Below, one piece after another: positions 13,288 through 61,544 of a stretch of 64,000 bases of DNA. This DNA is from Candidatus Poribacteria bacterium (GTDB lineage Bacteria > Poribacteria > WGA-4E > WGA-3G). The notes below the pieces were generated by a model. That model saw nothing but the letters and a program-made list of their open reading frames with translations. It did no database searches and was not told the DNA's origin. The stretch is taken from contig OZ242029.1 in assembly GCA_965205015.1 (NCBI GenBank), forward strand, positions 455,937-519,936. Direction: 5' to 3'. Position 1 is the stretch's first letter, and every line of letters starts with the position of its first letter. A program made the translations under genes and the position numbers.

Positions 13288-13332
13288 AAATATCTGAACC
13301 TTAAGCGGAAAGGAAAATTAAAGAAGCGGTCT

Positions 13333-13788: not shown

Positions 13789-13806
13789 GCACAAGGAGGA
13801 ACACGG

Positions 13807-15158: not shown

Positions 15159-15330
15159 CAACTGCGGTTTTCTCTAAGAGTCCACCGTCTAACTGTTGCT
15201 CCACCCGCGGGCATTTCCCTGATACTCTGAAATAGGTGAGTATCAGGCATATCGTCAAGTGACGGCTATCCCTGCCCGCAAAATGTTTATTGCAGCGTTG
15301 ATGTCTCGGTCATGGTGAGAACCACAATCG
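15117..15330 (-). ncRNA. Putative TnpB right-end RNA (reRNA / omega-RNA)
   Basis: By analogy with characterised TnpB systems, the guide RNA derives from the 3' end of tnpB plus the element's right end. Nothing is verified structurally. Confidence 0.25.
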
Positions 15331-36582: not shown

Positions 36583-36650
36583 TCATGAGCTCAATGTAAA
36601 CTATTATTCTGAGTTCCTCCGACTACAATGCCCAGCGTCTTGACAGACAA

Positions 36651-38207: not shown

Positions 38208-38229
38208 ATTACTCCTTCCTTCTACGTTT

Positions 38230-39981
38230 TCAATCACCTGCCCATAACTTCTGCATCTCTCTGGAGGAAGCGAGCAGTTCATCCAACGTCCCGACCGCCT
38301 CAACTCGCCCCTCTTTCAGCACAACGATCTGATCTGCGCGACGGAGCGCGGGACGCCGGTGAGAAACAACGAGGCAGGTCGATCGCGTCGTCTCAAAAAG
38401 GCGTTCCCATAGGGTCTGTTCCGTCTCAACATCAAGACCAGACGAAAGATCGTCAAAAACGAGAAGATCCGAGTCTCGCACGAACATCCGTGCCGCCGCA
38501 GTGCGTTGCATTTGCCCACCTGATAATTTTACACCGCGTGGTCCAACGATAGTATCGAGACCGTCTTCAAGTGTTGGCAGATCCTGCTCCATGACCCCGA
38601 GCCGGATCGCACGGTTTAGGGTATCCCAATCCCACGGTAAACCCATGAGGATGTTGGCACTCAGTTTTTCGCTGAAGAGTTTCGGTGTTTGCGGTGTATA
38701 CGCGCAACGCGGTGGAACGAAAAACGACTTCGGGTCCTCAACGATTTCGCCGTTCCAGCGAATCTCGCCCCCCTGTTTCGGCAGAACCCCTAAGAGTGTT
38801 TGTACCAAGGTTGTTTTGCCTGAACCGATCTGCCCTGTAACAACGGTGAACGATCCAGCCGGAATTTTTAAATCAACCGCAGCAATGCCCGCTGCGTCGC
38901 CGTCGTAACGGTAGGTGAGTCCAGAAACGGTCAGCTCATTCAGCCGATCCACCTCTCGCTTTTGAGGGACAATGAGCGGCGGTTGGTTTTCCCGTAAATA
39001 TACCGGTGTGTGTTCGACTAATTTCTCCTCTGGCATCTCCTCAACGGTCTGCCCCATGCGGGAGTACGAAACCTCTGCGCGTTTGTGCTGTGCCATTATA
39101 CTACCAACGAGTGACCCACTCCTGGCAACTTCACCAATATACGTGGTGAAAAGTGCGAAATCTCCAACTGTAAATTCCCCTGTCTGCATCTGTTCTGCAA
39201 TCAGAATCAAAACCACGCCAGTAGCAAGATTGTTAATATTGAAACTAATGGATCGGAGGAGTTGATTGAACACATTATCCACCACCGTTGCCTTGCGGCG
39301 CGCATCGTTCAGCTTCTGAAAATGGTCAATCACATTTTTCTCCGTTCGTGCAACCTTCACTGCTAAGATGGATTGGAACAGTTCGTTGATAAAATTAGTC
39401 GACTGTTCGGTGGTGACACGCTGTGCCGTACGATATCTTTGAATGAATCGCCGTGACACGTTGACCACTGTGATAATCAGAATAAACGGGATAACCGTGA
39501 TGAGTGTCACCGCTACGTCAATCTGAGCCATCCAGATGATCGCCAAGATCGCGAAAATAAGATTCCCCCATAAGTGAATATATTGTTCCAGATAACTTAA
39601 AATCGCCTGAACATCGTCACGGAGTCGATTTGTCGTTTCACCGGAGGCAGTTGACACATTATGCGGTGCCGACATGTTCATAATGGCGGTCATCAGGTTT
39701 TTTCGCAGGAGCGTTGAAACAGCGTAACGCCAACGCGCCCATACGAATGCTGAAGAGATTAGCACACCTCGATCGGCAAGGTGCGCGACAACAAAGAGCG
39801 CAACGAATGTCCAAGCGTTGAATCCTACGCCCGATTCTCCAGTGAGGGCGTCAAAAAATCCCTTCCGAATCAGTCCCTCAAAGAATGGCATGAGGTCGTC
39901 CAATCCTCGGAAAAGGATGGTGCTGAGAAAGAGGACTGGACGGTAACGAATGAGACGAACGGATGCTTGCCCTGTTGTCAC
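38230..39981 (-). CDS. ABC transporter permease/ATP-binding fusion protein (exporter half-transporter)
   Basis: An N-terminal 6-TM domain, Walker [13 protein letters not shown] signature LSGGQMQR and Walker [13 protein letters not shown]. Confidence 0.85.
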
Positions 39982-41720
39982 TATATCATTTCCTCCAATC
40001 CTGTTCTCAGCAATCGCGAGAAAAGCGAATCCGGGTCCTGGACAAGTCGTTTGCGTTCACCGTGTTCCTGAATCTCTCCATTGGCGAGAATCATAATTTC
40101 GTCTACCTGTTGTACCGTTCCGAGTCGGTGCGCAATAATGATACTGGTGCGTCCCTTCAATAACCGCTGTACCGCGCTGTCAATCCGTTGCTCTGTCGCT
40201 GGATCAAGCCGTGAGGAAGGCTCATCAAGGATAACGACTCTTGGATCCTTGAGGAAAACCCTCGCAAATGCCAGCAACTGCGACTCTCCAGCAGAAAGCC
40301 CCGTGCCTTCAAGAAGTGTATCCAGCCCGTTTGGCAGGGATTCATACCACTCCAATAATCCGAGTTCCTCAATCACCGACAAAATCCGGTCGTCGGAAAT
40401 TTCAGTATCAAAGAGCGTCAAATTATCGCGCACCGTCGCATTGAAGAGTTGCACATCCTGTGTAACCATGCCGATTTGGTTCCGCAGATCATCCAGCAGA
40501 ATTTTCTCGATTGGCTTACCTCCGACGCGAATGTGTCCACTATTAATCTCATAGAACCGAAACAGGAGACGGGTGATCGTGCTCTTACCGCTACCCGTCC
40601 GTCCCAACAACCCGAGCGATTTCCCCGGGGTCAGTTGGAACGAAACATCTTTCAGCACAGACTCATCTTCGGTGTAAGCAAATGTGACATGGTCGAATTC
40701 AATGTCAAGCGCGCCGGATGCAGGAAGTGCTTCTGTTCCATCTTCAATACTTGAGGTGACGCGATAGAGTTCTTCAATCCGTTTGAACCCTGCAGTCGCC
40801 CGTTGGAGTTCATTAATCTGACGACCAATCATGATTAATGGACCTCGGAGCATCGCAGTGTAATGAATGACAAGGTAGACCGTCCCGATCGTAAACACCT
40901 CTATCTGATACAGGTAGATACTCATGCCCATCGCCAGCGCCACCCCTAATGCGAAAAGGATACCGCTTATGGTTTGTAGCACTTCTCCCATCACATGTGC
41001 TTTTACGGCTCTACCGTATACATCGCGATTTACATCGTAGAACCGATCCATGGTATACCCGATCCCCCCGTTTGTGCGGAGATCTTCAATACCTGTTAAC
41101 CGTTCTTCAAGAAACCCAAAGAGTCTGGAGTATCCCTCTCGCTCAGCTGTATAGACTGGAACAGCAATGTTTCGAGTCAGATTGTAAACGAAAATGGAAA
41201 CCACCACAAAACCCGTTAATGCGACACCGATCCGCCAGTCTTCGAGGGTGATCACAACCAAGATACCGCCGAGCAGCAATAAACTCCCCATCACCTGAAG
41301 TATGAACTCAGAAAAAAAGTTTGAGAGTGCCGCTGTATCCCCGTCAACGCGCTCCACCATTTCACCGGGGGTTCGCTCGTGGTGGAAGGACATGTCGAGT
41401 TGTAGACAGTGATGCGCGAGGTCACCGCGCATCCAGTTCGTTGCTCGCCAACCGATGTCTTGTCCTAAATAGGTGTTGACTAACATCAACACTTGTCCAA
41501 GAATCCCGATTGCCAAGAACGCAACACCAGCGATAATCAGGTCTTGTCTCTCGCCTCCCGCCTTTGCGGTATCAATGAAATAGCGGAGAATTTGTGGATT
41601 GAGTAGGGCTAGACCGATCCCACCGAACATGAAAAACGCGAGCAACGCCACGCGTATCCATTGCGGTTTCAGGTACTGTGAAAGGAGTGCGGCATATTGC
41701 CTGAAAGGTACTTTTTCCAA
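39981..41720 (-). CDS. ABC transporter permease/ATP-binding fusion protein (exporter half-transporter)
   Basis: Walker [10 protein letters not shown], a slightly degenerate signature LSAGESQ and Walker [13 protein letters not shown]. Its stop overlaps the start of the next ABC gene. Confidence 0.85.
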
Positions 41721-41721
41721 A

Positions 41722-41762
41722 TTTTAATTTTTTCCTTGCGGATTTTTAATTTTCCTTGCGGG
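41722..41762 (-). promoter_or_regulatory. Tandem ~20-bp direct repeat immediately upstream of the ABC/rSAM operon
   Basis: TTTTAATTTTTTCCTTGCGG / TTTTTAATTTTCCTTGCGGG on the plus strand, equivalent to CCGCAAGGAAAAxTTAAAA twice on the coding strand. Confidence 0.35.
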
Positions 41763-41811
41763 AGAACAACGGGGAAACACCCCAGCAAAAATATCGCCTT
41801 TTAACCGACAA

Positions 41812-42570
41812 CTAATTTCGTTTGAGTGATGCCCAAGTGATTGCGAGTTTCCCTTTACTCTCGACAGGCAGTCCAACGGTTGCAAGCCTTTTGAGGTCGT
41901 CGGCATTCAACGTCCGATCATAGATCATCACTTCGTCGATTAATCCTTTGAAGAATCTGGCACCACAGCATTCATCCCATCCGAACTTTAAGTTGACGAC
42001 CGTCTGTTCAATATGGGGAATGTCGTTTACCTCAGCATCAAGTTTGTCACTATCTCTGTGATAAATGTAACTCGTTGCTTTATCAGGTTCAATTGCTATC
42101 GCGACCAACGCCCATTTATTTTCTGGGATTTCTGGTGCGCCTTGCCAGTTCCACGTCAGTGCGGAGTTGTTGTTCCATACATACGTCAGGGTATTGTTCG
42201 CGGCGACCCCCATCCACCACGATGCTGGATCACTTCGACCGACGACAATTCCCGACCAATCTATCGTTTTCCAGCCGTTGATTCGGGCGATCACCGTGAT
42301 TGCTGTCGTTGTCAATTCAAACGTATCATCAACAACGACATGTCCGCCACCACCATCGAACTCAACGGCACCGTTCACCCAACCGTCGTCAGACCATTTC
42401 GCGCCTTTTTCCAAATTGGCATCGTTTCCGTTACCGGATTCGTCGTTTCCATTGCCATCAAGGGGCCAGTAACCGACAAGTCCTTCCGTCAGATCCGCTG
42501 CGAACGCGCCTGTAGACCAAAGACTCACGGCAACGGCTAAAACTATAATACCTTTCACTCTGTGCTTCAA
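41812..42570 (-). CDS. Secreted LamG / concanavalin-A-like lectin domain protein
   Basis: A signal peptide (KHRVKGIIVLAVAVSLWSTGAFA) is followed by LVGYWPLDGNGNDESGNGNDANL...NGAVEFDG...FFKGLIDEVMIYDRTL. The start is set at TTG with an upstream GGAGG. Confidence 0.6.
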   Translation of the reverse strand: MKHRVKGIIVLAVAVSLWSTGAFAADLTEGLVGYWPLDGNGNDESGNGNDANLEKGAKWSDDGWVNGAVEFDGGGGHVVVDDTFELTTTAITVIARINGWKTIDWSGIVVGRSDPASWWMGVAANNTLTYVWNNNSALTWNWQGAPEIPENKWALVAIAIEPDKATSYIYHRDSDKLDAEVNDIPHIEQTVVNLKFGWDECCGARFFKGLIDEVMIYDRTLNADDLKRLATVGLPVESKGKLAITWASLKRN

Positions 42571-42802
42571 TTCTTGCCTCCTTATGTTACATCCCACGCT
42601 TCCAGTGGTGGGAATTAAGAACGCTATTTTTGATAGAGAAAAACAGCCAAAGATGCTATACTTTAAACGAACAGAATCCCAAAAAATAACAGCACCTTCA
42701 TAAGCCCTTATCATACAGTAAAAAACGGTTTCATGCAAGAAAAATCGTGTAACTCACGTTAGGCATAAGGCACCATTGACGAAACACATGAGGACATTTT
42801 GA

Positions 42803-43696
42803 ATGATTGATCCGGAAAGTCAACCCATTATTGTGCTTGGTGTTGAGCGCAGCGGGACATCTGTCGTTGCAGAGATGGTGCACAGATGGGGTGCGTATGC
42901 GGGTCCTCCGGATAAGTTACATAAAGCCGATGCACATGCTCCCAGAGGATATTGGGAGTTTCTGCCTTTATGGGATCTGCTTGCTGAGCTAGGGGACTTT
43001 GATGCTGGAGCGACTTGGTGGGACCACGATTTCCAACAGCGAATGAAGAAAAAAGCCGATGATCCTGCCTCCAGAAAGAAAGCCACTGAACTCATGGCTG
43101 AAATGTACAAAGGAGGTCCCTGGTTTTGGAAAGACCCAGCACTGAGCCATTTTTTGCTGTTTTGGAAACAGATATGGGGCAATGCGATTTATATAATCAC
43201 GGTTCGCCATCCTTTTGACACCGCAGTATCCTGGCAGAAATTCATTATGCCATCTAACGTGAAAGCCCGTATCTCCTTCGTCGCGATGAATTTGCTACGC
43301 TGGCAGCATATAATGACGCAAATCTTGCAGCACACAGAGGATGCACAACACCGACTCTTTCTTGGCTACGAAGATATTATGCGTCAGCCACGCGCCCAAG
43401 CTGAGCAGTTGGCTTATTTTCTGAATTCAAAGTTTGGAAATCCAGTTTCATCCATTCAGGCAATGGTTGATGCAGTTGAACCTGAACTCTGGCGAAATGA
43501 TTGTGATATTCCGTTTGAACAGGTAACTGAAGCGACAGTGGAGCAGAAAGCCCTTTATACCTTTGCAAGGCGGAAGATTGATAACCCATTTGAGCCCTTT
43601 GACGTTGCAGAATATCCATTACCACCGGGATACCTTGAGTTCCTAAACATTCAAGAGGCATTACTGAAAGCCTATCGCGAACTTGGACACCGATGA
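42803..43696 (+). CDS. Sulfotransferase-family protein
   Basis: An N-terminal PAPS 5'-phosphosulfate-binding loop (IIVLGVERSGTS) and a later RHPFDTAVSW segment. Confidence 0.7.
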   Translation: MIDPESQPIIVLGVERSGTSVVAEMVHRWGAYAGPPDKLHKADAHAPRGYWEFLPLWDLLAELGDFDAGATWWDHDFQQRMKKKADDPASRKKATELMAEMYKGGPWFWKDPALSHFLLFWKQIWGNAIYIITVRHPFDTAVSWQKFIMPSNVKARISFVAMNLLRWQHIMTQILQHTEDAQHRLFLGYEDIMRQPRAQAEQLAYFLNSKFGNPVSSIQAMVDAVEPELWRNDCDIPFEQVTEATVEQKALYTFARRKIDNPFEPFDVAEYPLPPGYLEFLNIQEALLKAYRELGHR

Positions 43697-43744
43697 ATGT
43701 CTACAGCTAACACAACAGTTTTTGTCAGAGTATGAGGTTAGACT

Positions 43745-44119
43745 TTGTATATTGATATTGTCCCAGCACAAAATCATATACCTGATCATTACAGCGATTA
43801 CCTGCAAGGCTATCGCGCCGTCCGTTTGTTGGCAGAAGACAGCACAATTCTGGGTGAACTCGTTTGGCGTGTTGCATCAGGACATAATATTGAGATCACG
43901 GAATTCGGTATATTTGAGGAAGAGAATAAACGAAAGGGTTGGGGGACGCAGGCAGTATCTTTGGGAACTGACCCTGAACTAACAGGGAACCAAGTTCTTG
44001 TGGACGTTGCATGGATATGCCTAAACGAACTCACAGAACGAGATAGAGTGTTTCTATGGACTGCTGGCTTGTTGACAATTCCCGAATTTTCTGAGGAAAT
44101 TTGGCACTTACCGACTTGA
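43745..44119 (+). CDS. Small hypothetical protein, possibly a truncated GNAT-like fold
   Basis: An RKGWGTQAV segment resembles GNAT motif A. There is no other similarity. Confidence 0.3.
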   Translation: MYIDIVPAQNHIPDHYSDYLQGYRAVRLLAEDSTILGELVWRVASGHNIEITEFGIFEEENKRKGWGTQAVSLGTDPELTGNQVLVDVAWICLNELTERDRVFLWTAGLLTIPEFSEEIWHLPT

Positions 44120-44132
44120 GTGAGGAAGCTTC

Positions 44133-45056
44133 ATGGACGGAGCGATTCGTGTGGTGGAACAGTTGAAAGGTCCCGTCGTACCGGTGAATGTCTGCTTTGG
44201 TGACGATGACTCACTGGATATCAGTGCAATGCGGAAATACGTCAACTGGTTGTGTGAGCAGAACGTTCCAGTGATTCTCCTCACGTATGGTAGTAGCGAA
44301 TTCTGTAGCCTGACAGACGAAGAAATCTGGCAGTTGACTGCGGAGCTCGCAGAAGAAATATCAGGTCGCTCGCTTTTCATCGCTTCAACGGGTTGGTGGC
44401 ATCCCGGACAGTGCAGAGAGTTTTTGAAACACTGCGATGACGTGGGTGTAGACGCTGTCAAGATACAGATTCATCCGGGTTTAGGGGTGAAGCGCGAGGT
44501 CATCGTTGGCTACTTTGATAGCATTCAGGAGGCCGCGCCGATGCCCTTGTTGGTTTGGGGAGCATGGCAAGACCCCTATCCTGTGGACATCGTTGCTGAG
44601 TTAGCCAAACGTCCGGAAGTGGTCGGTATCAAGAATGACGGTCATCCGTTCTATGCTTACTATGACATCATTCGTGCAACCACCGACGAGAATTTTGTGG
44701 TGATCAGCGGTGGGCAGATGCGTAATTTCATGTTCGGCTACCCGATCGGTTCAACCGCATATCTCTGTACCATTGCTCCCTTCCGACCCGACATTGCGTT
44801 GGAATTCTACGATGCTTTAACCGCAGGGCGCAACGATGATGCACATGAGATTATCTTTCGCTATGAAGAACCTTGGCTCAAGGTAGCAACAAGATTGGAA
44901 TGGTTACCAAGCATCAAATCAGCACTGCATCTTCACGGACTCTATCCCAACCATCGCCTTCGAACGCCTGCTGTTTCGCACACAGACGAGAAACATCACG
45001 AAGTACAAACGGTGTTGGAGCAGGTCTTTGGGAACATCAAACTTGTGCGACTCTAA
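44133..45056 (+). CDS. Dihydrodipicolinate synthase / N-acetylneuraminate lyase family class I aldolase-like protein
   Basis: The N-terminal pattern VPVNVCFGDDDSLDISAMRKYVNWLCEQNVPVILLTYGSSEFCSLTDEE and a length of about 300 aa fit the DapA/NAL fold. Confidence 0.55.
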   Translation: MDGAIRVVEQLKGPVVPVNVCFGDDDSLDISAMRKYVNWLCEQNVPVILLTYGSSEFCSLTDEEIWQLTAELAEEISGRSLFIASTGWWHPGQCREFLKHCDDVGVDAVKIQIHPGLGVKREVIVGYFDSIQEAAPMPLLVWGAWQDPYPVDIVAELAKRPEVVGIKNDGHPFYAYYDIIRATTDENFVVISGGQMRNFMFGYPIGSTAYLCTIAPFRPDIALEFYDALTAGRNDDAHEIIFRYEEPWLKVATRLEWLPSIKSALHLHGLYPNHRLRTPAVSHTDEKHHEVQTVLEQVFGNIKLVRL

Positions 45057-45137
45057 TTGATGGACGCAAATGGTTAAACCCTATTCAGCCGTGATATCAA
45101 CGATCGTTCTCAATCTACTCGATGTACGCATACGCCA

Positions 45138-46025
45138 ATGAACCAAACAACTGAGATTACAGCAGAGAATGTGTGCGATTTTCTTAAAAAATTCGCTACA
45201 GATATATCTGTTGAAGATCTAAAACCTATATCCAATCGCCACCGCGGGGGTGATAACCTTACTTTCTACTACCGCGACGATGCTATCCTCAAGATTGCGC
45301 GTAATGCCTATCGAGCCAGGCTTCTAAAAGAAGCTAAACTCACAGAATACCTACACACATTATCCATGCCTTTCACTGTCGCAAAACCGATCATGGTACA
45401 CGACAAGGGATTCTATGCGGTGTTTTCAAGAATCAAGGGTTCTTCACTACCCATAGAAGCACTTGAGAAATTTACCACCAGAGAATTAGAATCCTTTGGC
45501 AAATCTCTCGGAACCTCTCTCACCTTTCTACACAGGCACAAATTTCCAGATGAGGTCTTAGACTATATCCCACACGCTGATGACCCTTTCGCAATGGCAA
45601 TTCGTGACACAAGGCAACAACTTGCCTTTATTGCGGAAAATACTACAGAAGTCGATACAAATCGATGGCGTGAAAAACTGGAAAACCTGCAGGAATCCTT
45701 AGATCAGAGGTGGGCTGTCGTTCACACCGATCTCCAAATAAACCATCTGTTTTTTGTACAGGAAGATCTTGAACAGCTCGTCATTATTGATTGGGCTGAT
45801 GCTTTGCTGCACGATCCAGCGATAGATCTATCTGAGTTCGCTATAGAGATGTATTCAGATTTACCGCCTGATGGTATTGTTGCCAAAAAGGTTATTGACG
45901 TGGTCCTGAAGTATTATCAGACAGATGATGCTGCGATTACAGAGAAGATTGAATTTGGACTTCTGGTTTTTGAAATTGGACGCGCCTACCAACGGGTCAG
46001 GAATTCGGTCGGACAGCCTAAATAA
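45138..46025 (+). CDS. Aminoglycoside phosphotransferase (APH)-family small-molecule kinase
   Basis: A catalytic loop HTDLQINHLFF and a metal-binding IIDWADA (DFG-equivalent). Confidence 0.7.
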   Translation: MNQTTEITAENVCDFLKKFATDISVEDLKPISNRHRGGDNLTFYYRDDAILKIARNAYRARLLKEAKLTEYLHTLSMPFTVAKPIMVHDKGFYAVFSRIKGSSLPIEALEKFTTRELESFGKSLGTSLTFLHRHKFPDEVLDYIPHADDPFAMAIRDTRQQLAFIAENTTEVDTNRWREKLENLQESLDQRWAVVHTDLQINHLFFVQEDLEQLVIIDWADALLHDPAIDLSEFAIEMYSDLPPDGIVAKKVIDVVLKYYQTDDAAITEKIEFGLLVFEIGRAYQRVRNSVGQPK

Positions 46026-46238
46026 TGTCTGATTTGTATACACACCCCAAGCTTGACCCTCTCCTAACTTATTTGGCGAAACCTGCCCTCTCCCGAATTT
46101 CGCCGTTGCTGTTTTTCTGAAGATGGTGTATATTACACCTAACTGTTTTTAAGGTTATAGCCGTTTTGGATCGTCAAGCTACCGTAATCAATAGGTTTTC
46201 TGTGTCTACAAACTCATCTGATGCAGGAAGGAGATTTT

Positions 46239-47405
46239 ATGAAAATTAAAGAAATTCGCGTCGTAGAAATCGAACTAAACCCAAAACCGACAACAACGCC
46301 GCGCACACCGAGTCGATCCGGAACATATCAATTGAATCGACCCATCACACGTTATCCCTCATTCAACAGAAAAGAAGGACACGTTTCCTATTCGGAATGG
46401 AAACGTCCCGCCTGCATTATAACGGCGGAAGATGGGACATGGGGTTTCGGTATCTCGCTTTATGGCGGTCCCGTAACCCGAATCATCTCAGATCACTTTG
46501 TCCCCTTCCTCGTTGGCGAAAATTGCATGGCAACTGAAAAAATATGGGACATGATGGTGCGATTGTCAGCTGCCTTCGGCGCAACCGGCTTGACGAGTTA
46601 CGCCATCAGCGCGGTGGATTGTGCGTTGTGGGACCTCAAAGGCAAAATTTTGGGACGACCGGTTTATGAACTCCTCGGCGGACCGCAAAAAGAAAAGATT
46701 TTCTGCTACGCCTCTGGGTTCGATCAGGAATGGTACATGGAACTCGGATTCAAAGCCACAAAACTCTTCACACCGTGGGGTCCAGAGCAAGGAAAAGAAG
46801 GCTTAGGCAAGTTGGAAGAATTGGTAGCAACGACACGGGAAGCGATTGGCGATAACGTTGACTTGATGTTGGACGCTTGGACCGGTTTTGACATAGAACA
46901 TACCGTCCGCGTCTGTGAAACGATGAAGCCTTACGGGTTGAAGTGGATGGAGGACTATATCCGTGCCGATGATTTTGTCGGCTACGAGACGGTGCGTCAA
47001 CGCCTCCCTTGGCAAACGCTCGCTACTGGCGAACATTGGTATCTGCCGACTGTCTTTGCGGAGGCGGCAGGACGACGGCTGGTTGACATCTTCCAACCGG
47101 ACGTTTTGTGGTGCGGCGGCATTACATCGGCAGCAAAGATTTGTCACATTGCTGAGGCGAATGGAATTTCCGTGATTACACACGGTGGCATGAACTATCC
47201 CTATGGTCAACATCTCGCCTTTGCGATGCCTGCCATCACGTGGGGTGAACGCTCCGAGGGTGTATCTGCCCCCGGTGTCCCTCTGGAGGAGATGGTCAAG
47301 TTGCCTGGCACTTCTGTTATCAAAGACGGCTATGTCGCTCCATCAGATGCCCCCGGCTTCGGTCTCGAAATTGATGAGGCATGGATAGAGAGTGTAATGG
47401 CATGA
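46239..47405 (+). CDS. Enolase-superfamily mandelate racemase/muconate lactonizing enzyme family (sugar-acid dehydratase-like)
   Basis: MKIKEIRVVEIEL..., metal-ligand context DLMLDAWTGFD ... WMEDYI, and length about 390 aa. Confidence 0.8.
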   Translation: MKIKEIRVVEIELNPKPTTTPRTPSRSGTYQLNRPITRYPSFNRKEGHVSYSEWKRPACIITAEDGTWGFGISLYGGPVTRIISDHFVPFLVGENCMATEKIWDMMVRLSAAFGATGLTSYAISAVDCALWDLKGKILGRPVYELLGGPQKEKIFCYASGFDQEWYMELGFKATKLFTPWGPEQGKEGLGKLEELVATTREAIGDNVDLMLDAWTGFDIEHTVRVCETMKPYGLKWMEDYIRADDFVGYETVRQRLPWQTLATGEHWYLPTVFAEAAGRRLVDIFQPDVLWCGGITSAAKICHIAEANGISVITHGGMNYPYGQHLAFAMPAITWGERSEGVSAPGVPLEEMVKLPGTSVIKDGYVAPSDAPGFGLEIDEAWIESVMA

Positions 47406-48175
47406 ATGACGAAATTACGATTGCCAATCGAGCGCGGTGGGAAGCCGAAGTCTTGAAAAAGAACGGCTTTACTGTGCCGTGGCTTGACCTCGATAGAGAT
47501 GATATTCTGCAATATGCTGAAGGGCAGCTTGACCCGATTCCGTATCATCTCTATCAAATCTATCCCGCGTATCTACTCAGAGATGTTGCGCGCAAAGATG
47601 TGTTGTGCCTTGCCGCAGGTGGAGGACAGCAATCAGCGGTATTCGGTCTGCTTGATGCCCGTGTGACGGTGATTGATTTCACGCGGGGGCAGCTTGACGG
47701 AGATATAACGGCTGCGAAGCATTACGGCTATTACGTAGAAACGCGACGCCTCAATATGCGAGATCTGTCCGCAATTGAGGACGCATCGTTTGATTTTGTC
47801 TATCAGGGTCCCTCCATGAGTTGGGTGCCATCCGTTCATGAAATCTATAGAGGCGTAGCGAGGATCATCCGTCCGGGAGGTCAGTATCGCGTGGATTTCG
47901 GCAATCCCGCCAATCATTTTTGGGAGTGGGATGGTGAATTCTATCGTGTTACCGAACCGTATTCTGAGCGCGTTTTCAGGTATCCAGACGGCGCATTCGA
48001 TTTCCGGCACTACCTGAGTGATATATTCAATGGACTCGTGGACAACGGTTTTCGGATTGAGCGGGTTGAGGAACGTTCTTGGATCCAGCCAGATATTAAT
48101 GCTACACCGGGAAGTTGGACGCACGAGATGGCTTACAACGTGAGTTTTGCTATCGTCGCGAAGAAAGACGGATAG
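47402..48175 (+). CDS. Class I SAM-dependent methyltransferase
   Basis: Motif I is VLCLAAGGGQQSAVFGLLDARVTVIDF. The ATG overlaps the enolase stop (ATGA). Confidence 0.75.
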   Translation: MNDEITIANRARWEAEVLKKNGFTVPWLDLDRDDILQYAEGQLDPIPYHLYQIYPAYLLRDVARKDVLCLAAGGGQQSAVFGLLDARVTVIDFTRGQLDGDITAAKHYGYYVETRRLNMRDLSAIEDASFDFVYQGPSMSWVPSVHEIYRGVARIIRPGGQYRVDFGNPANHFWEWDGEFYRVTEPYSERVFRYPDGAFDFRHYLSDIFNGLVDNGFRIERVEERSWIQPDINATPGSWTHEMAYNVSFAIVAKKDG

Positions 48176-48318
48176 ATCTGAAAGACAGAGGTTTACTGTG
48201 GAGGAACTAAGTCTTCGCAAGGCGCACGCAAGCGAGCGTGAAAGTTTTACCCATTTCCAGATGGAGAAAAGGTAATAGGCACACGCCGTGTGCCGTCGCT
48301 GGAGCATATAGATCCATA

Positions 48319-49272
48319 ATGGCTATTGATTTCGTTGAAGCACTCTCCACAGATAACTTGACTGCCATAAGAGCAGCCCCTAAAACCGATGTTCACTCCC
48401 ATTCTTTTTTAAGTGCACGTCGAGAGAATGCAGAGCGTTGGCTCGGACGTCCGCTCACCAAACCGCCTCTCAAAATGAAAGGACTTGGCGGGATGATGGA
48501 ATACATAGATGCTGCTTTAGCACCGCACTTAGAACACCGCCAAGGTTTTGAGTTCATTGTGGTGTCAGCGATAGATGACGCAGTCCAAGATGGTGTCGTT
48601 ATACTTGAAATGAGTTTCGACATCCGGTTGCTTAAGTTTTATCCGGGGGGGTTGACCGAACTTCGCGCATTTATTGAACTGTTAGTTGAGCGGTATCGGG
48701 AGCACATTGATTTGCGTCCTGAACTCGGCGTTGCGCGCGAGTGTGCCGCCGATCCAAAATGGATGAAATTGGCACATCAAGCAATAGAATTGGCGTTTTT
48801 TCAATCAATCGATCTGTATAGCCATCAAGAGGCGTGTGCACCTGAAGCCGTGCAGTCCTTATATGCCAAGGCACGCGAAGTAGGGATGAAACTCAAAGCA
48901 CACGTTGGCGAGTTTGGCGGTGCAGAAGAAGTCCGACGAACCGTCGAAGTCTTGGATTTGGATGAGGTTCAACACGGCATTGGTGCTGCGGAATCGGTTG
49001 AAGTTATGCGGTGGCTTTCGGAGAATCAGATACAATTGAACGTGTGTCCAACGAGCAATGTGATGTTAGACGCAGTGCGGGATCTCGCCTCACATCCGAT
49101 CCGCATCTTATTTGACAACGGTGTGTCGGTGACCATTAACACAGATGATCTGATGATATTCGGTCAGAGCGTCTCCGAAGAGTATCGGAATCTTTACCGC
49201 GCAGGCGTCTTCAGCGCGCAAGAATTGGACGATATTCGGTGCGCCTCTCTCTCACCTTCGCCAATTGCGTAA
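48319..49272 (+). CDS. Adenosine/AMP deaminase-family metallo-dependent hydrolase
   Basis: A metal-binding DVHSH, a mid-region HVGEF and a C-terminal TINTDD, matching ADA family positions. Confidence 0.75.
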   Translation: MAIDFVEALSTDNLTAIRAAPKTDVHSHSFLSARRENAERWLGRPLTKPPLKMKGLGGMMEYIDAALAPHLEHRQGFEFIVVSAIDDAVQDGVVILEMSFDIRLLKFYPGGLTELRAFIELLVERYREHIDLRPELGVARECAADPKWMKLAHQAIELAFFQSIDLYSHQEACAPEAVQSLYAKAREVGMKLKAHVGEFGGAEEVRRTVEVLDLDEVQHGIGAAESVEVMRWLSENQIQLNVCPTSNVMLDAVRDLASHPIRILFDNGVSVTINTDDLMIFGQSVSEEYRNLYRAGVFSAQELDDIRCASLSPSPIA

Positions 49273-49286
49273 AGGAGAAATCAACT

Positions 49287-49775
49287 GTGTCCAATACACA
49301 GACATGGCACATTCGACACGCTCTACCGAGTGAAGTTGAGTATTTGAGTGGACTCGCATTCCGTTCCAAGTCGTATTGGGGCTATTCCGACCGATTTATG
49401 CAGGCATGCCTTGAGGAACTCACGGTTGACGAGTGCTACATTGAGAACAACCCTACTTTTGTGATTGAAGCTGCAGGAAACCTCGTAGGATTCTATGCGT
49501 TAGAACACATCTCTGCTGTCGAAGCAGAATTGAGTTTTCTATTTGTTGACCCAACCTTTATTGGAAAAGGTTACGGTCGAAAGTTAATGATGCACGCGCA
49601 AGAAAAAGCACGGCACCTCGGATACAGTAAAATGATTATTCAAGGAGACCCGAACGCCGAACGATTCTATCGCTCAGCGGGAGGTTCGGTAGTCGGCACA
49701 AGGAAGTCTGCGAGTATTCCCAATCGTGAACTTCCTATATTCTGTATCAATTTGAAAGAATCAGACAAATCCTAA
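49287..49775 (+). CDS. GNAT-family N-acetyltransferase
   Basis: VGFYALEH...LFVDPTFIGKGYGRKLMMHAQEKARHLG is motif A. A GTG start at 49287 is preceded by AAAGGAG. Confidence 0.75.
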   Translation: MSNTQTWHIRHALPSEVEYLSGLAFRSKSYWGYSDRFMQACLEELTVDECYIENNPTFVIEAAGNLVGFYALEHISAVEAELSFLFVDPTFIGKGYGRKLMMHAQEKARHLGYSKMIIQGDPNAERFYRSAGGSVVGTRKSASIPNRELPIFCINLKESDKS

Positions 49776-49845
49776 GGAGTGTGCACAAAGCGATAACCGA
49801 AATATAGACTGAAGATTGTCGTTTCCATTTTTAAATCTCGTTGAA

Positions 49846-49884
49846 GCCTTATGCACACCGATCCCGGCAGCATAAGGTTTTTTT
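49846..49884 (+). terminator. Rho-independent terminator ending the 9-gene plus-strand block
   Basis: CCTTATGC ... GCATAAGG (8-bp stem) followed by TTTTTTT. Confidence 0.6.
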
Positions 49885-50148
49885 GTCAGTTCACAGATTT
49901 CCAAAATTTACGACTATATCGCAAAACGCAATTCCCACGCGCCGTTTTGTTTCTCCGAAATATAGGCAATCGGCAATTTATTCTGTTTCAAGCACTTACC
50001 TCACGAAACAATTCCAAAAAATCCATTTTTTTTTATAAGATGCACGTTTTCTATCCCAAAATTTTGTCTTTAATAATTAAGTGCACAGTGATACAAACGT
50101 GTTGGATTTTTGAATTTTAGAAAACCGACATTCAAGGAGTCGTAAAAA

Positions 50149-51918
50149 ATGTCAACAGAGAATCCAAAGGCTGTTGGAAAGCGATTTTTAAAAGGTGTTT
50201 TCCGATACTGGCCCCAGATTGTTAAAACCACGTTGTGCATGACTGTAATGGTGGGTTTCTCGCTGCTGATACCTCTTTTTACAAAATTGGTAATAGACAG
50301 AGCGATCACACAACAGGACCAAAAATTGCTCTGGATCGTCTGCCTTGGCGGTGTTGGTTCCATCTGCGTGTATGTTTTACTTTCTCTTATACGTGACCGA
50401 TTCTATATCTATACGACAAGGCGGATCCTGCTCGATTTCCGGAATCGGTTTTTCCAACACCTCCTGCGGCTTCCGATGCCGAGTCTCACCAAAAGGCAAA
50501 CGGGGGAGTATGGTTCGATGGTCATTAACGATGTAGATGCGATTCTGACGAGTGCAACGTATAATGTCCTTCATTTCTTTACAGACACGCTGTCAGCGGC
50601 CGCCATTATCACGATAATGTTTTACTTCAATTGGAGGTTGGCACTGATCGCACTGATTGTTGTTCCGCTTAATGGACTCACTTACGTCTACTTTCGACCG
50701 CATTTTCATAAGGCGACCCTAAAGAGACAAGAAGCGACAGCGGCGACGTTCTCATACGTGCAGCAAACTTTATCAGCGATTCGACTGGTAAAGTCCTTTT
50801 CGGCAGAGAAACATCATAACCGCTCCTTCTTTCGAGAATCCAAATTGTTGCTTTTTGCCCAAGCAAAGGTCTCGGTTTTAGAATCGATTGCTGGTAACAT
50901 TAGTCAGTTCGTGGTAAGAACGCAACCCATCGTGATTATCTGCTTTGGCGGTCTGGAAGTCTTAGAAAACCGATTGACGATCGGTGAGTTGGTTGCCTTC
51001 TCGGCATATCTTGAATACCTGTCTGCTCCCGTATATCGTATCCTCCACTTCCACCTTGGACTCGCCGCGACGAAAGCGGTCCTCCAGCGTCTTTTCCAAG
51101 TTCTTGATTTACCGGATGAACACAATGGAAACGAAGATCTGGAAAAGAAAAAACTTGACGACGTCGTCGGGCAGATTCAGTTTCAGTCTGTACGTTTTGC
51201 ATATCAAGAGGTTGAAGTTCTTAAAGACATCAATTTGGAGGTCCGTCCAGGTAGCATTGTCGCGCTTGTTGGACCTTCGGGTTCCGGCAAAACCACACTG
51301 ACGAATCTAATTCCTCGCCTGTATGAACCGAATGCCGGTCGTCTTCTGCTTGATGGACATGATTTGCAAACTTTAGACCTGAAATTCCTAAGACAGCAGA
51401 TCGGCATTGTGCCACAAGAACCGGTTCTCTTTGATGTGAGTATCAAAGATAATATCCGATATGGGTGTCCCTCCGCAACAGACGAGGCCGTCTACGCCGC
51501 AGCGCAAGCTGCGAATATACACGAGTTCATTGTGTCTCTGCCGGACGGATACGAGACGCAGATCGGTGAACGCGGTTTCAAGTTGTCTGGTGGTCAAAAA
51601 CAGCGCGTCGCGATTGCCATGGCAATCTTGAAAAATCCAAAAATTTTAATCTTGGATGAGGCAACGAGCGCGCTGGATTCACAATCCGAGACACTCATCC
51701 AAGAGGCACTCCAAAATGTCATGAAACAGCGGACGACCTTTGTGATCGCTCACCGCCTCTCTACAATCCAGAATGCAGACCAGATTGTGGTTATGGATCA
51801 GGGAGAGATCGTCGAAGTTGGAAGTCATTCTGAACTGTTAGCGTCCGGCAAACTCTATAGTCAATTATATCGTGAGCAGTTCAAATCGCTCTTAGATTCA
51901 CCAGAAAGGAACGTCTAA
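50149..51918 (+). CDS. ABC transporter permease/ATP-binding fusion protein (MsbA-like exporter)
   Basis: 6 TM, Walker A GPSGSGKTT, signature LSGGQKQR and Walker B ILILDEATSALD. AAGGAG precedes the ATG. Confidence 0.85.
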   Translation: MSTENPKAVGKRFLKGVFRYWPQIVKTTLCMTVMVGFSLLIPLFTKLVIDRAITQQDQKLLWIVCLGGVGSICVYVLLSLIRDRFYIYTTRRILLDFRNRFFQHLLRLPMPSLTKRQTGEYGSMVINDVDAILTSATYNVLHFFTDTLSAAAIITIMFYFNWRLALIALIVVPLNGLTYVYFRPHFHKATLKRQEATAATFSYVQQTLSAIRLVKSFSAEKHHNRSFFRESKLLLFAQAKVSVLESIAGNISQFVVRTQPIVIICFGGLEVLENRLTIGELVAFSAYLEYLSAPVYRILHFHLGLAATKAVLQRLFQVLDLPDEHNGNEDLEKKKLDDVVGQIQFQSVRFAYQEVEVLKDINLEVRPGSIVALVGPSGSGKTTLTNLIPRLYEPNAGRLLLDGHDLQTLDLKFLRQQIGIVPQEPVLFDVSIKDNIRYGCPSATDEAVYAAAQAANIHEFIVSLPDGYETQIGERGFKLSGGQKQRVAIAMAILKNPKILILDEATSALDSQSETLIQEALQNVMKQRTTFVIAHRLSTIQNADQIVVMDQGEIVEVGSHSELLASGKLYSQLYREQFKSLLDSPERNV

Positions 51919-57209: not shown

Positions 57210-58151
57210 ATGGATTTCATTAAAGCACTCTCCACAGATAACTTGACCGCTATCAGAGCAGCCCCTAAAACCGACGTTCATTGCCACGCATTCTTCAGTA
57301 CACGATTAGAGAATGTCGAACGTTGGATAGGGCATTCCCTAACGAAGCCACCTCCCAAGATGAAAGGGGTTGAGGGAATGATGGCGTATGCGGACGCGGT
57401 CTTAGCAGCACCCATAAAACACCGTGAAGGTTTCGAGTTTGTCGCGGTGTCAGCGATGGAGGATGCCGTCCAAGATGGTGTTATCATGCTTGAAATGAGC
57501 TTCGACATCCGTCTGGTAGGGTTCTATCCTGACGGGGTGGCTGGGCTTTGCGCGTTTATTGAGACATTGGTTGAGCGATATCGGGGACAGACAGATTTAC
57601 GTCCAGAACTCGGCTTTTCTCGTGGAGATGCTGACGATCCGAAACTGATGACATTGGCGCACGAAGCAGTAGAATTAGGTTTTTTTCGCTCAATTGATCT
57701 CTATAGCCGTCAAGAGATCTGTCCACCTGCGGTTATGAAGCCGTTGTTTACACAAGCACGCGTAGCAGGAATGAAACTTAAAGCACACGTTGGTGAATTT
57801 GAAGACGCGGAGGAAATCCGACGAACTGTTGAAGTTCTCAATTTAGACGAGGTCCAGCACGGTATCGCTGCCGCAGCATCGACAGAAGTTATGCGCTGGC
57901 TCTCGGAGAATCAGATACAATTAAACGTCTGTCCAACGAGCAACGTAATGTTGGACGGTGTGTCGGATCTCGCCTCACACCCGATTCGCGTTTTATATGA
58001 TAACGGCGTGCCGGTGACAATCAACACGGACGATCTGATGATATTCGGTCAGAGTGTCTCCGAAGAGTATCGGAACCTCTACCGTGCAGGCGTCTTCAGC
58101 GCGCAGGAGTTAGACGATATTCGACGCGTGTCCCTTGAAGTCCTTGATTGA
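57210..58151 (+). CDS. Adenosine/AMP deaminase-family metallo-dependent hydrolase (paralogue of 48319-49272)
   Basis: DVHCH, HVGEF and TINTDD motifs. The 3' 230 nt are about 90% identical at DNA level to the other copy. Confidence 0.75.
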   Translation: MDFIKALSTDNLTAIRAAPKTDVHCHAFFSTRLENVERWIGHSLTKPPPKMKGVEGMMAYADAVLAAPIKHREGFEFVAVSAMEDAVQDGVIMLEMSFDIRLVGFYPDGVAGLCAFIETLVERYRGQTDLRPELGFSRGDADDPKLMTLAHEAVELGFFRSIDLYSRQEICPPAVMKPLFTQARVAGMKLKAHVGEFEDAEEIRRTVEVLNLDEVQHGIAAAASTEVMRWLSENQIQLNVCPTSNVMLDGVSDLASHPIRVLYDNGVPVTINTDDLMIFGQSVSEEYRNLYRAGVFSAQELDDIRRVSLEVLD

Positions 58152-58190: not shown

Positions 58191-59270
58191 TTACTCAACC
58201 CTGGGTTGTCTTGCAGTTGGGTTTCTTTGTAAACGGACTTTTGAGTCTTTCAACGGAAGTTCAATACGTGCACCGTTGTGTAGATGTGATTCAATGATGC
58301 CAAAAATCAGTTCCGTGCTGGCATACGCGCACCGGACCCCGCCTCGGGTCGGTTCACCTGTATCTAATGCGTGAACAAGGTCTTTAACCAAGTTGGCTGT
58401 GCTACTGGTACGTTCAAATTCAGGAAAAGTTTCAGGTACCTGACATGCCCGCCACCCCGGTACATCTTGCTGTTTACGGAGATGCCACTGCCAACCGTTG
58501 TTCCAGCACGTAACGGTTCCACTATCACAAATTGCTTCCCATTCACTACTGCGTGGGGTTAGCAGCGCATGTGCCGTCACACCATTTTCAAACTGGATCG
58601 TTCCCCCGCCAGACGGATCAACTCGCAGTTCATCGCCATCAAAAACCGAATCGCCTTGTGGTAGATAGCCTGTGATCCAACTCGCAGACGCATCACTATT
58701 CAAACGTAAAATTAGGTCGAAGTGATGGCTGGCTGAGTTGAAAAGTGTGCCGTTTGAATAGATAATCAAGGTGCGTAGATTACCGATTTCACCACTGTCA
58801 ATGACCTCTTTCATCTTGTCGAAACCTGTATGCCACCGGCGATTCGTGCCGAGGTTAAAGGCAACGTTGTTTTCTTCTACCGCCGATACCATTGCGGCTG
58901 CCTCGTCCATAGAAGCCGCCATCGCCTTTTCTGCATAGATGGCTTTCACACCGTGTTCCGCTGCGTAAATAACAATTTCGGCGCGATGCTCGGGTTGTGT
59001 GGCAACGCTGACGATATCAGGCTGTTCTTTTTCCAGCATGTCACGATAATCGGTGTATTGATTCGCTTTTGGAACATTATATCGGTTCCCAAAATGTTCC
59101 ATAACTTCTGGACGCAGATCCGCACATGCGACAAGGTCGGTTCGCTCTTCGGCAAAAAAGCCTGCAGCATGGGAATACGGTAACATAATCGCTTCGTAAT
59201 CGGGGACTTCGTTATCAATAAATGCCCCCATCCGGCTACAACCGATAACAGCAGCACGATACGTTTTCAT
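58191..59270 (-). CDS. Gfo/Idh/MocA-family oxidoreductase
   Basis: An N-terminal YRAAVIGCSRMGAF Rossmann motif, an EKA/EKP motif (IYAEKAMAAS) and a MocA C-terminal domain. The start is at the internal ATG encoding MKTYRAA. Confidence 0.8.
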   Translation of the reverse strand: MKTYRAAVIGCSRMGAFIDNEVPDYEAIMLPYSHAAGFFAEERTDLVACADLRPEVMEHFGNRYNVPKANQYTDYRDMLEKEQPDIVSVATQPEHRAEIVIYAAEHGVKAIYAEKAMAASMDEAAAMVSAVEENNVAFNLGTNRRWHTGFDKMKEVIDSGEIGNLRTLIIYSNGTLFNSASHHFDLILRLNSDASASWITGYLPQGDSVFDGDELRVDPSGGGTIQFENGVTAHALLTPRSSEWEAICDSGTVTCWNNGWQWHLRKQQDVPGWRACQVPETFPEFERTSSTANLVKDLVHALDTGEPTRGGVRCAYASTELIFGIIESHLHNGARIELPLKDSKVRLQRNPTARQPRVE

Positions 59271-59531
59271 CGGTATTCTCCTCATCCTGAATAAAATAAT
59301 TTGATAGGTCCTTCCACCGCGTTCGATCAATCGCTCACTCATCAGAAGAATAACCAATTTCCGAAAACACGTCAAGAAAAATCAGCACATCGTTCACATG
59401 ATGCCTCCTAAAGTGCATCCAAAATTGTATGTAGATGAAACATTATCACGTTTTAGCAGAGCCTTAACAAACGTTTCTTTGAATCATTCGCAAAAATTTG
59501 AAGCGATTCGGGGTAGACAACACAAAGGGAA

Positions 59532-60830: not shown

Positions 60831-61544
60831 GTGAAATCTGTGAGTGAAAAATTATGTATCATGACGGCTTACGCCGACGAAACACATACACTCCTGAACG
60901 TCTTGGGTCAGGAGGTTGGGGATTCGGTTGACTGGAACAGTAGACTCCAGTTTGAAGGGTCGGATGGAGACAAAAAATGGGTCGTCATGCAGTCAGGGAT
61001 GGGCAAAGTCCGCGCGGCATCGATGTGCCAAATGATAATAGACACATATCAGGTAGACACCTTCTTTGAGTTCGGATTTGCCGGTGGATTGGTCGATACC
61101 CTGGATATCGGAGACATCGTCGTGATTACGGGTGTCTCTGAACACGACGTGCCGAATCGATCAGAAATTCAGCGCGAGCAAGATGAATGGAGAGCGCGTC
61201 TTTTTCAGGCTTCTGCACCTTCAATAAGCACATTCGCAACTACCTTATCAACGGATCCCAATGTTACAATTACAAAAGCCCCTGTAATCTGCGGAGATAT
61301 GGACGTATATAACCGTGCAGTGAGGGACAAAATCGCAGTAGAGAGTGGAGCCGTCGCAGTGAATTGGGAATCGTCGGCGATTGTGGATGTCTGCGCGCTT
61401 AACAACGTCAAATACGTCGGCATCCGCGTCATATCCGATCTGTGTATCGAAGAGGATAGCGGACCTATCCCAAAGGAACGGATTGAACGCTTGCATGAAT
61501 CAACCAAAACTTACGTAAATGCTTTAGTGGATTTCAATAATTGA
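60831..61544 (+). CDS. PNP/UDP phosphorylase-fold nucleosidase (MTA/SAH nucleosidase-like)
   Basis: FGFAGGL, VGIRVISD and overall length about 235 aa fit the Pfs/MTAN-family fold. Confidence 0.55.
   Translation: MKSVSEKLCIMTAYADETHTLLNVLGQEVGDSVDWNSRLQFEGSDGDKKWVVMQSGMGKVRAASMCQMIIDTYQVDTFFEFGFAGGLVDTLDIGDIVVITGVSEHDVPNRSEIQREQDEWRARLFQASAPSISTFATTLSTDPNVTITKAPVICGDMDVYNRAVRDKIAVESGAVAVNWESSAIVDVCALNNVKYVGIRVISDLCIEEDSGPIPKERIERLHESTKTYVNALVDFNN

Follow-up and report, generated by a model that had tools for sequence, protein, structure and literature searches.

A colinear, differentially eroded array of probable accessory metabolic genes in Candidatus Poribacteria

What is a row of transferase, kinase and deaminase genes doing together in the genome of a Candidatus Poribacteria bacterium, and does it belong to an antibiotic cluster? 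The row lies in the window analyzed here, a stretch of 64,000 nucleotides (assembly GCA_965205015.1, contig OZ242029.1, positions 455,937 to 519,936 of the forward strand), in which a list of open reading frames (ORFs) places eight co-directional + strand ORFs across positions 42803–49775, with an ABC exporter gene beyond them. An earlier, sequence-only reading took these genes and the exporter together for a candidate small-molecule modification operon, closest to the tailoring or self-resistance sets of nucleoside and aminoglycoside natural-product clusters. Comparison with related genomes leads us, with moderate confidence, to a different answer: the region from 42.8 to 49.9 kb would be the local version of a colinear, co-directional and differentially eroded poribacterial array around a three-gene core. 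The array is probably ordinary accessory metabolism, and an antibiotic-tailoring operon is disfavored.

The comparison set comprised 74 loci, one genome per GTDB species and all from Candidatus Poribacteria, together with two close metagenome relatives. The 74 loci were collected through their ADA-like deaminase gene, and several genomes contribute two or three paralogous loci. Window proteins were compared with these loci by tblastn using corrected gene starts, and unmatched ORFs were then called, clustered, and annotated. Gene content was counted in two subsets: 25 "complete" loci, which span the left anchor (a divergent ABC/LamG operon) to the GFO oxidoreductase gene and for which GFO presence was a selection criterion; and 39 loci in which 4.5 kb or more could be seen upstream of the dehydratase gene. 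Domains were called from Pfam and NCBIfam profile scores for ORFs 150 aa or longer throughout the 64-kb window, apart from a few overlapping or short ones. Selection was measured as the pairwise ratio of nonsynonymous to synonymous substitution rates (dN/dS) of window genes against the loci, with the housekeeping gene RsgA (0.129) as reference. The array and its boundaries comprise the following features:

42571..42802, no strand: intergenic region from which the LamG-domain gene (− strand) and the array diverge; likely promoter region of the array
42803..43696, +: 3'-phosphoadenosine-5'-phosphosulfate (PAPS)-type sulfotransferase (Sulfotransfer_3), accessory; Pfam 63 bits, PSB loop GVERSGTS at residue 16
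43745..44119, +: in-frame GNAT–NUDIX fusion ORF, product of a 472-bp deletion
44133..45056, +: DHDPS/NAL-family class I aldolase or dehydratase (KdgD-like), accessory; Pfam 69.6 bits, lysine motif VVGIKNDG at residue 165
45138..46025, +: APH/ChoK-fold small-molecule kinase, accessory; Pfam APH 62.8 bits
46026..46238, +: 213-nt spacer between kinase and dehydratase, with a weak hairpin and T-rich tail at 46125–46139; possible internal transcription-unit boundary
46239..47405, +: enolase-superfamily acid-sugar dehydratase of the RhamD group (MR_MLE_N and MR_MLE_C in Pfam), invariant core
47402..48175, +: class I S-adenosylmethionine (SAM) methyltransferase (Methyltransf_11 in Pfam), invariant core; ATGA overlap with the dehydratase stop
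48198..48275, +: 25-codon stub of a GNAT gene (GNATb), with an internal deletion of ~350 bp
48278..48294, +: conserved GC-rich hairpin GGCACACGCCGTGTGCC just upstream of the first ADA gene, with no U-tract
48319..49272, +: compact 317-aa adenosine/adenine-deaminase-family amidohydrolase (ADA1), core; Pfam A_deaminase 118 bits
49287..49775, +: 162-aa GNAT acetyltransferase, accessory, 14 nt after ADA1; Pfam 52.7 bits, GTG start with an AAGGAG Shine–Dalgarno sequence
49846..49884, +: intrinsic terminator closing the array; hairpin of −18.5 kcal/mol (z = −3.7), then U7
58191..59375, −: GFO/IDH/MocA oxidoreductase (Pfam), convergent with the array

The domains predicted from the letters of the window were borne out by Pfam and NCBIfam, as was the + orientation of all the flagged genes. 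Conservation of the genes as a block, set beforehand as the test of the operon proposal, is not what the related loci display: only the dehydratase, the methyltransferase, one ADA and GFO are constant in the complete loci. The dehydratase, the methyltransferase, and at least one ADA gene occur in 25/25 of them, as does GFO, by selection. Other genes are found in some loci and not in others: DUF218 in 15 of the 25, NUDIX in 9, a uridine-kinase-like P-loop kinase (PRK) in 8, and a glyoxalase in 5. Among the 39 upstream-visible loci, the sulfotransferase, DHDPS-like, and APH-like genes are found in any combination (none of the three in 20 loci, all three in 6, partial sets in 13). The relative order is fixed throughout: sulfotransferase, GNAT, NUDIX, DHDPS, APH, dehydratase, glyoxalase, PRK, methyltransferase, GNAT, DUF218, ADA, and GNAT, with GFO converging on the end. 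The gene set of the window is unique among the compared loci, and accessory genes are patchy within both dehydratase clades (96–99% and 87–94% identity). Retained intact genes have dN/dS values of 0.055–0.18, against 0.13 for RsgA; by this measure the intact genes are under purifying selection. Given their patchy presence and these low ratios, the accessory genes are dispensable between species yet constrained and functional where they are kept.

How the gene sets came to differ can be read from the closest relatives. Loci L077 and L078 share 90–96% and 84–96% DNA identity with the window, respectively, and each differs from it by gene-sized insertions or deletions. Both retain the whole frame (exporter, CBM9/DUF5916 protein, ECF sigma::BNR protein, a second ADA gene, and GFO), and in both the NUDIX, glyoxalase plus PRK, and GNATb genes are intact. 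Most of the sulfotransferase gene is gone from L077; the APH-like kinase and the ADA-linked GNAT are gone from L078. The window differs by deletions of 472 bp and ~350 bp and by the absence of ~1.2 kb, corresponding to the glyoxalase and PRK genes, between dehydratase and methyltransferase. The direction of this ~1.2-kb event is less certain, because the distant locus L075 has the same short junction.

The 472-bp event produced the ORF at 43745–44119, which had been taken for a small GNAT-like gene. Its residues 1–69 match the N-terminal half of a 136-aa GNAT (L001:2022–2432), and its residues 67–124 correspond to the C-terminal 57 aa of a 138-aa NUDIX protein (L001:2452–2868); both parent genes are intact in L001. 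The DNA alignment contains one clean gap of 472 bp, with ACGCAG microhomology at the junction. The product has no Pfam match and lacks both the Nudix box and the C-terminal half of GNAT, and it is probably a non-functional remnant. The second scar lies before ADA1. Alignment with L077 shows that the GNATb stub keeps the first ~50 nt and the last ~35 nt of a 145-aa GNAT (L077:9520–9957); an intact, 149-aa GNATb is present in 15/25 complete loci, and the GC-rich hairpin GGCACACGCCGTGTGCC also lies 3' of the intact gene in L077. The stretch upstream of ADA1 is the stub of this deleted gene; ADA1 itself starts at ATG 48319 and not, as had been proposed, at GTG 48238. Against its closest relatives, then, the window shows two clear scars of deletion and lacks one further gene-sized stretch, and the alignments indicate that accessory genes have been removed by small, microhomology-mediated deletions. 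Scars and fixed order together favor differential loss out of a long ancestral array over import of unrelated cargo.

One invariant member of the array is the dehydratase, found in 50/74 loci at 87–99% amino-acid identity and with the lowest dN/dS of the locus (0.055). Its best NCBIfam model is L-rhamnonate dehydratase, at 224 bits against an equivalog cutoff of 393 that it misses; its PDB matches are an Azotobacter vinelandii homologue (2oz3/3ekg, 197 bits) and Escherichia coli YfaW/RhamD (2i5q, 177 bits), which have the same fold. The motifs LMLDAW (residue 211), WMED (236), TGEH (GEH at 264), and THGG (314) align to their counterparts in 2i5q, 2oz3, and 3fxg. These motifs carry the Asp/Glu/Glu metal-ligand positions of the family and the His of its HG motif.

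The methyltransferase is coupled to this gene by the ATGA overlap that had been noted from the sequence (ATG 47402–47404, TGA 47403–47405). It is found in 49/74 loci at 82–96% identity, with a dN/dS of 0.088, and where glyoxalase and PRK are inserted before it, its start overlaps the PRK stop in the same manner. In the PDB it comes closest to 8k76 (59 bits), an unnamed SAM methyltransferase; literature searches on Poribacteria and on entry 8K76 turned up no account of this locus. Known rhamnonate operons are without a SAM methyltransferase, whereas the poribacterial dehydratase is always coupled to one. Here, too, the aldolase partner is dispensable, and a sugar transporter or regulator of the rhamnose type is not present. 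The convergent GFO gene is 89–95% identical across loci (dN/dS 0.079), and its best NCBIfam matches are inositol and sugar dehydrogenases, all under cutoff.

The third core member belongs to a family with several copies, two of which lie in the window near a nucleosidase-like gene:

57210..58151, +: second ADA-like paralogue (ADA2), 313 aa, 75% identical to ADA1; the pair brackets the inserted exporter module
60831..61544, +: 5'-methylthioadenosine (MTA)/S-adenosylhomocysteine (SAH)-nucleosidase (MTAN)-like PNP_UDP_1 protein near the ADA genes; NF004079 91 bits against 169, TIGR01704 67 against 73.8

ADA1 has no equivalog-level match in NCBIfam: it aligns over its full length to NF006856 at 272 bits against 510, and scores 120.6 against 216.55 for TIGR01430. 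The motifs HSH (residue 26), HVGE (195), HGI (219), and TDD (275), with equivalents in ADA2, correspond to the HxH, HxGE, HG, and TDD motifs that ADA1 has in common with PF00962 adenosine/adenine deaminases and that mark metal-binding and catalytic positions in this family. The nearest structures are adenosine-deaminase-family entries: 3rys and 3ou8, both cog1816 adenine deaminases, and Plasmodium adenosine deaminase. ADA1 is set apart from these relatives by a score of just ~80 bits to any solved structure, mostly over the C-terminal half, by its position below all equivalog cutoffs, and by its multiple paralogues with a linked GNAT; its dN/dS is 0.12. An exact look-up of the protein found no identical record. 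Its relatives form more than 120 database clusters at 82–96% identity, and all named ones are Candidatus Poribacteria.

Within the phylum, the compact ADA family comprises at least 4–6 orthogroups, 72–76% identical to each other, with tandem copies; ADA1-type and ADA2-type orthogroups each fill the position after the methyltransferase, in different species. The ADA-linked GNAT (dN/dS 0.177) usually travels with an ADA copy and follows it in 9/25 complete loci. ADA–GNAT pairs are duplicated in L003/L076 and in L040, and ADA(–GNAT) units in other genomes are tandem-repeated or bracket other cargo, such as a restriction–modification pair. An ADA copy stands immediately 5' of an MTAN-like PNP gene in L051, L056, L066, and L072, and in L063 another (L063:10001–10948) adjoins IleRS and a xanthine-dehydrogenase-type enzyme. 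The subfamily reaches beyond Poribacteria (201 representative clusters at E ≤ 1e-30), and its distant homologues in other lineages include NUDIX–ADA and HD–ADA fusions (P0208, P0214, P0135); their names are uninformative, either "adenosine deaminase" or none. The fusions suggest nucleotide-derived substrates for the subfamily, and fusions and neighbors together point to adenine nucleosides or nucleotides.

Three further observations concern this end of the array. In L051 the ADA gene (L051:9992–10948) is followed by the MTAN-like PNP, a GNAT, and a 778-aa ORF equal in length to the CehA/McbA-type protein of the window. A futalosine pathway (aminofutalosine deaminase with MqnB) was considered and set aside: the PNP protein reaches 47 bits, where futalosine hydrolase requires 124.7, and the neighborhood contains no mqn genes. 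A 23-nt similarity (repeat D3) between the 5' end of ADA1 and the region before the terminator was judged to be chance.

The left arm of the array consists of accessory enzymes. The sulfotransferase (11/25 complete loci; dN/dS 0.128) had no relative in PDB and NCBIfam searches, and it is truncated in L076 (184 aa) and survives only as an 83-aa stub in L077. The DHDPS-like protein (5/25; dN/dS 0.088) is a family member only: its best NCBIfam match is of KdgD type, at 87 bits against a cutoff of 278, and it lies below the equivalog cutoffs for dapA (55 against 206), KdgD (70 against 374), and NanA (29 against 281). Its best PDB match, 4ur7, is a KdgD. The kinase (5/25, with a 94-aa stub in L078; dN/dS 0.175) has an IIDWAD motif and a catalytic loop that reads HTDLQINH in translation; a PDB search gave only matches at E ~1e-4, with no functional lead. 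Against antimicrobial resistance (AMR) models its best score is 23 bits for Mph(F), where 650 is the cutoff, followed by 16 against 600 for APH(2''). The loop has His where Asn is usual, and Mph families are the best, very weak, NCBIfam matches. Macrolide 2'-phosphotransferases also have His at that catalytic-loop position.

Is the array a single transcription unit? Co-directional genes and a strong final terminator speak for one operon; yet there are gaps of 213 nt (kinase to dehydratase) and 143 nt (methyltransferase to ADA1) and a weak internal hairpin at 46125–46139, so that the description of the genes as tightly packed applies within sub-groups and not across the whole. Promoter-like + strand sites lie at 42634–42662 and 42686–42714, by consensus match only. 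Upstream regions of the dehydratase from 48 loci align only at the AAGGAG Shine–Dalgarno sequence, so that no conserved leader RNA lies there; neither this alignment nor an Rfam scan yielded a conserved riboswitch upstream of the dehydratase, and Rfam and tRNA scans of the window gave no match. Transcription most likely starts within 42571–42802, may restart before the dehydratase, and would end at 49846–49884, to judge from these signals.

The anchoring region on the left is itself a divergent operon (34966–42738, −), which flanks the array in most loci and encodes a 538-aa protein of unknown function, two half-size ABC exporters, and a LamG-domain protein. The listed LamG ORF (308 aa) is probably ~56 codons too long compared with its 251–252-aa homologues; because of their length, the LamG start is placed near 42567–42570. 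Between the 538-aa gene and the ABC exporter pair lies a B12-binding radical SAM ORF (36651–38303, −). It looks like a lineage-specific insertion, since tblastn finds no counterpart in the 74 loci, whose 538-aa gene lies right against the first ABC gene.

Apart from the dehydratase, the methyltransferase, ADA, and the GFO gene by which loci were selected, each gene of the array is dispensable on its own. These data suggest a model in which the array is a row of independently working enzymes rather than one obligate pathway. Two metabolic themes may be distinguished. The first would be sugar-acid catabolism, with the RhamD-like dehydratase, the GFO dehydrogenase, and, in loci that have it, the DHDPS-type aldolase taking part. 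A parallel is offered by oxidative, non-phosphorylative sugar pathways (dehydrogenase, dehydratase, and 2-keto-3-deoxy-acid aldolase), as this locus too has a dehydrogenase of GFO type and, in certain genomes, an enzyme of the DHDPS family. The second theme would be adenine nucleoside or nucleotide processing, in which the ADA paralogues and NUDIX would be joined by the uridine-kinase-like kinase and the nearby MTAN-like nucleosidase. The rest of the array (GNATs, kinase, sulfotransferase, and methyltransferase) may carry out stand-alone group transfer, probably modifying or inactivating host or environmental small molecules.

Several points weigh against this interpretation. The division into a sugar-acid and a nucleoside theme, which we infer from family membership, rests on family-level analogy, with no enzyme at an equivalog cutoff, and the operon boundaries are likewise deduced from sequence signals. 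Fixed order and tight coupling (the ATGA overlap and gaps of 13–14 nt) would equally fit an ancestral single pathway that is being trimmed. The short dehydratase–methyltransferase junction, common to the window and the distant L075, could be ancestral. Because the loci were found through the ADA gene, "always present" applies to genomes that have the locus, and some poribacterial loci (of the L051 type) carry ADA–PNP without the array.

A single coherent pathway is the first alternative to be weighed. The genes would together catabolize or salvage one substrate, an adenine nucleoside in modified form or a deoxy-sugar; candidates are 5'-deoxyadenosine, MTA, and a nucleoside derived from sponges. 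The steps would be deamination, base removal, sugar oxidation, dehydration, and aldol cleavage, and the transferases would serve to prepare variants of this substrate or to detoxify them. The conserved colinear order and purifying selection fit this proposal, as do the adjacency of ADA and PNP and the NUDIX–ADA fusions of other lineages; the classic three-step oxidative sugar route is built from enzymes of these families (GFO, RhamD-like dehydratase, and DHDPS-type aldolase), and substrates of the RhamD group are sugar acids with a terminal methyl group. However, the aldolase and the kinase are each found in just 5/25 complete loci, no lactonase or isomerase was seen, and the pathway has no place for the methyltransferase to which the dehydratase is always coupled. 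Close relatives also lose genes singly while the others stay. We therefore regard one obligate pathway as unlikely.

A narrower and bolder form of this idea would join the deaminase, the MTAN-like nucleosidase, GFO, the RhamD-like dehydratase, and, in loci that retain it, the DHDPS-type aldolase into an undescribed oxidative route that would dispose of an adenine nucleoside's 5-deoxy or 6-deoxy sugar. Its substrates might be 5'-deoxyadenosine or MTA by-products or a host-derived nucleoside analogue, with the coupled methyltransferase and the GNATs dealing with side products. Such a route is a speculative suggestion, and we consider it quite improbable.

Another alternative abandons a common substrate altogether. 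In a detoxification or resistance island, independent inactivating enzymes (kinase, acetyltransferases, sulfotransferase, methyltransferase, and proteins of glyoxalase/bleomycin type and beta-lactamase fold) or an exporter would each act against environmental bioactive compounds, and gene-by-gene patchiness would be expected of such independent functions. The accessory pool includes suitable families (APH, several GNATs, glyoxalase, a beta-lactamase-fold protein, DUF218, and ABC exporters), and an AAC(3)-type N-acetyltransferase gene with a score of 316 bits lies elsewhere in the window. Yet the kinase and acetyltransferases, which had been likened to resistance enzymes, fall far under every resistance-family cutoff (Mph 23 bits against 550–650; AAC(6') 24 against 265), and the invariant dehydratase, deaminase, and oxidoreductase are not enzymes of a resistance type. 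Families of this kind are also abundant genome-wide, which makes their presence here weak evidence. A resistance island is accordingly improbable. An anti-phage defense system was tried and rejected as well, as PADLOC gives generic similarity only, of the ADA domain to CARF–ADA (54–67 bits) and of the ABC ATPase.

That leaves the earlier proposal, in which a natural-product cluster of nucleoside-like or aminoglycoside-like type would have its tailoring or self-resistance operon here, with an exporter as the last gene. Transferase, kinase, and deaminase genes are indeed co-directional here. The puromycin pur cluster combines NUDIX, a GFO-type dehydrogenase, methyltransferases, and GNAT; the array loosely resembles puromycin-type sets and shares with nucleoside and aminoglycoside antibiotic clusters a co-directional mix of NUDIX, GFO-type oxidoreductase, methyltransferase, GNAT, and kinase. 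Unlike such clusters, it is without core biosynthetic genes among the scanned ORFs, without co-inheritance, and without a match to a resistance model, and its exporter is separate. The Pfam search of ORFs of at least 150 aa in the 64-kb window revealed no scaffold-forming, aminotransferase, glycosyltransferase, or NDP-sugar genes, and no polyketide synthase, nonribosomal peptide synthetase, or terpene synthase. The block is not co-inherited, and one of its members is a deletion remnant.

Nor is the mix of families distinctive: GNAT, Methyltransf_11, AAC(3)-type N-acetyltransferase, PhyH, and GFO are common elsewhere in the window, and the mix therefore does not stand out from the genome background. 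A second co-directional array, at 9763–14850, encodes a TackOD1-like protein, a LamG-domain protein, a Methyltransf_11 protein, the above-mentioned AAC(3)-type aminoglycoside N-acetyltransferase-family protein, an ORF of unknown function, and a PhyH dioxygenase.

The exporter was the closing element of that proposal, and it turns out to head a module of its own, preceded by conserved non-coding sequence:

49885..50148, +: strongly conserved non-coding region before the ABC exporter; presumed promoter and 5' untranslated region of a separate module
50149..51918, +: MsbA-like half-size ABC exporter (ABC_membrane and ABC_tran); 473 bits to the MsbA model (cutoff 602), AAGGAG Shine–Dalgarno sequence

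Both the terminator at 49846–49884 and an MsbA-like gene with its own Shine–Dalgarno sequence had been correctly recognized from the letters of the window. A simple terminator scan missed the former because its hairpin loop exceeds 8 nt; it is conserved in every one of the seven loci compared that have this module. By its profile scores the protein is a generic type-I ABC exporter that misses the MsbA equivalog score. It is followed by a CBM9/DUF5916 protein and an ECF sigma::BNR protein, and this module was detected by tblastn in L001, L003, L012, L055, and L071 and, from Pfam gene tables, in the same order in L077 and L078; it is present in 2/25 complete loci. About 300 nt (49830–50148, terminator plus exporter upstream region) are near base-for-base the same in the window, L077, L078, L001, L012, L071, and L076, whichever gene stands upstream. 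Since the conserved terminator and upstream region travel with the MsbA module, the exporter is counted as a separate, sporadic unit past the array, lodged between the two ADA paralogues. The region 49830–50148 may regulate this module of exporter, CBM9/DUF5916 protein, and ECF sigma protein. The last protein of that module (992 aa, 54207–57185) fuses an N-terminal extracytoplasmic function (ECF) sigma factor (regions 2 and 4) to a large BNR/Sortilin-type beta-propeller, and it is 83–87% identical in relatives.

What survives of the proposed small-molecule modification operon is a phylum-conserved, co-directional neighborhood of fixed order, with dN/dS in the range of 0.055–0.18; its standing as a tailoring operon with an exporter does not survive, and we consider that explanation very improbable.

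An integron-like or other mobile cassette array, suggested by small, variable, co-directional genes and by insertions at the locus in other genomes (IS605 TnpA and TnpB, an RRXRR (IscB-like) gene, and a restriction–modification pair), has almost nothing to recommend it, given that there are no attC-like or other repeated boundary elements and no integrase among the scanned ORFs, that several junctions measure −4 to 14 nt and differ in sequence between genes, and that order is fixed across species.

The insertions themselves, which also include a beta-lactamase-fold gene, do interrupt the row; in L001 the RRXRR gene sits between DHDPS and APH. In this respect the array resembles flexible-genome islets, with which it shares conserved flanks and core, gene-by-gene presence and absence, and IS605, IscB-like, and restriction–modification insertions; in contrast to such islets, its variable genes hold a fixed relative order. 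The window has mobile-element genes of its own, at 4911–5909, 15255–16367, and 16623–17765, comprising an RRXRR (IscB-like) ORF, an IS605-type TnpB, and a DDE transposase.

The reading that we favor, an eroding array of accessory enzymes around a small core, carries a caution for the interpretation of single genomes: a row of transferase, kinase, and deaminase genes can mimic antibiotic tailoring in one genome, whereas more than 50 related genomes show an eroding array with a small core. The locus also shows, cleanly and on a small scale, how an uncultivated lineage loses genes through microhomology-mediated deletion. For the biology of Poribacteria, the RhamD-like dehydratase, its coupled methyltransferase, and the multi-copy, compact ADA-like deaminase, all uncharacterized and strongly conserved in the phylum, would be reasonable targets for substrate screening.

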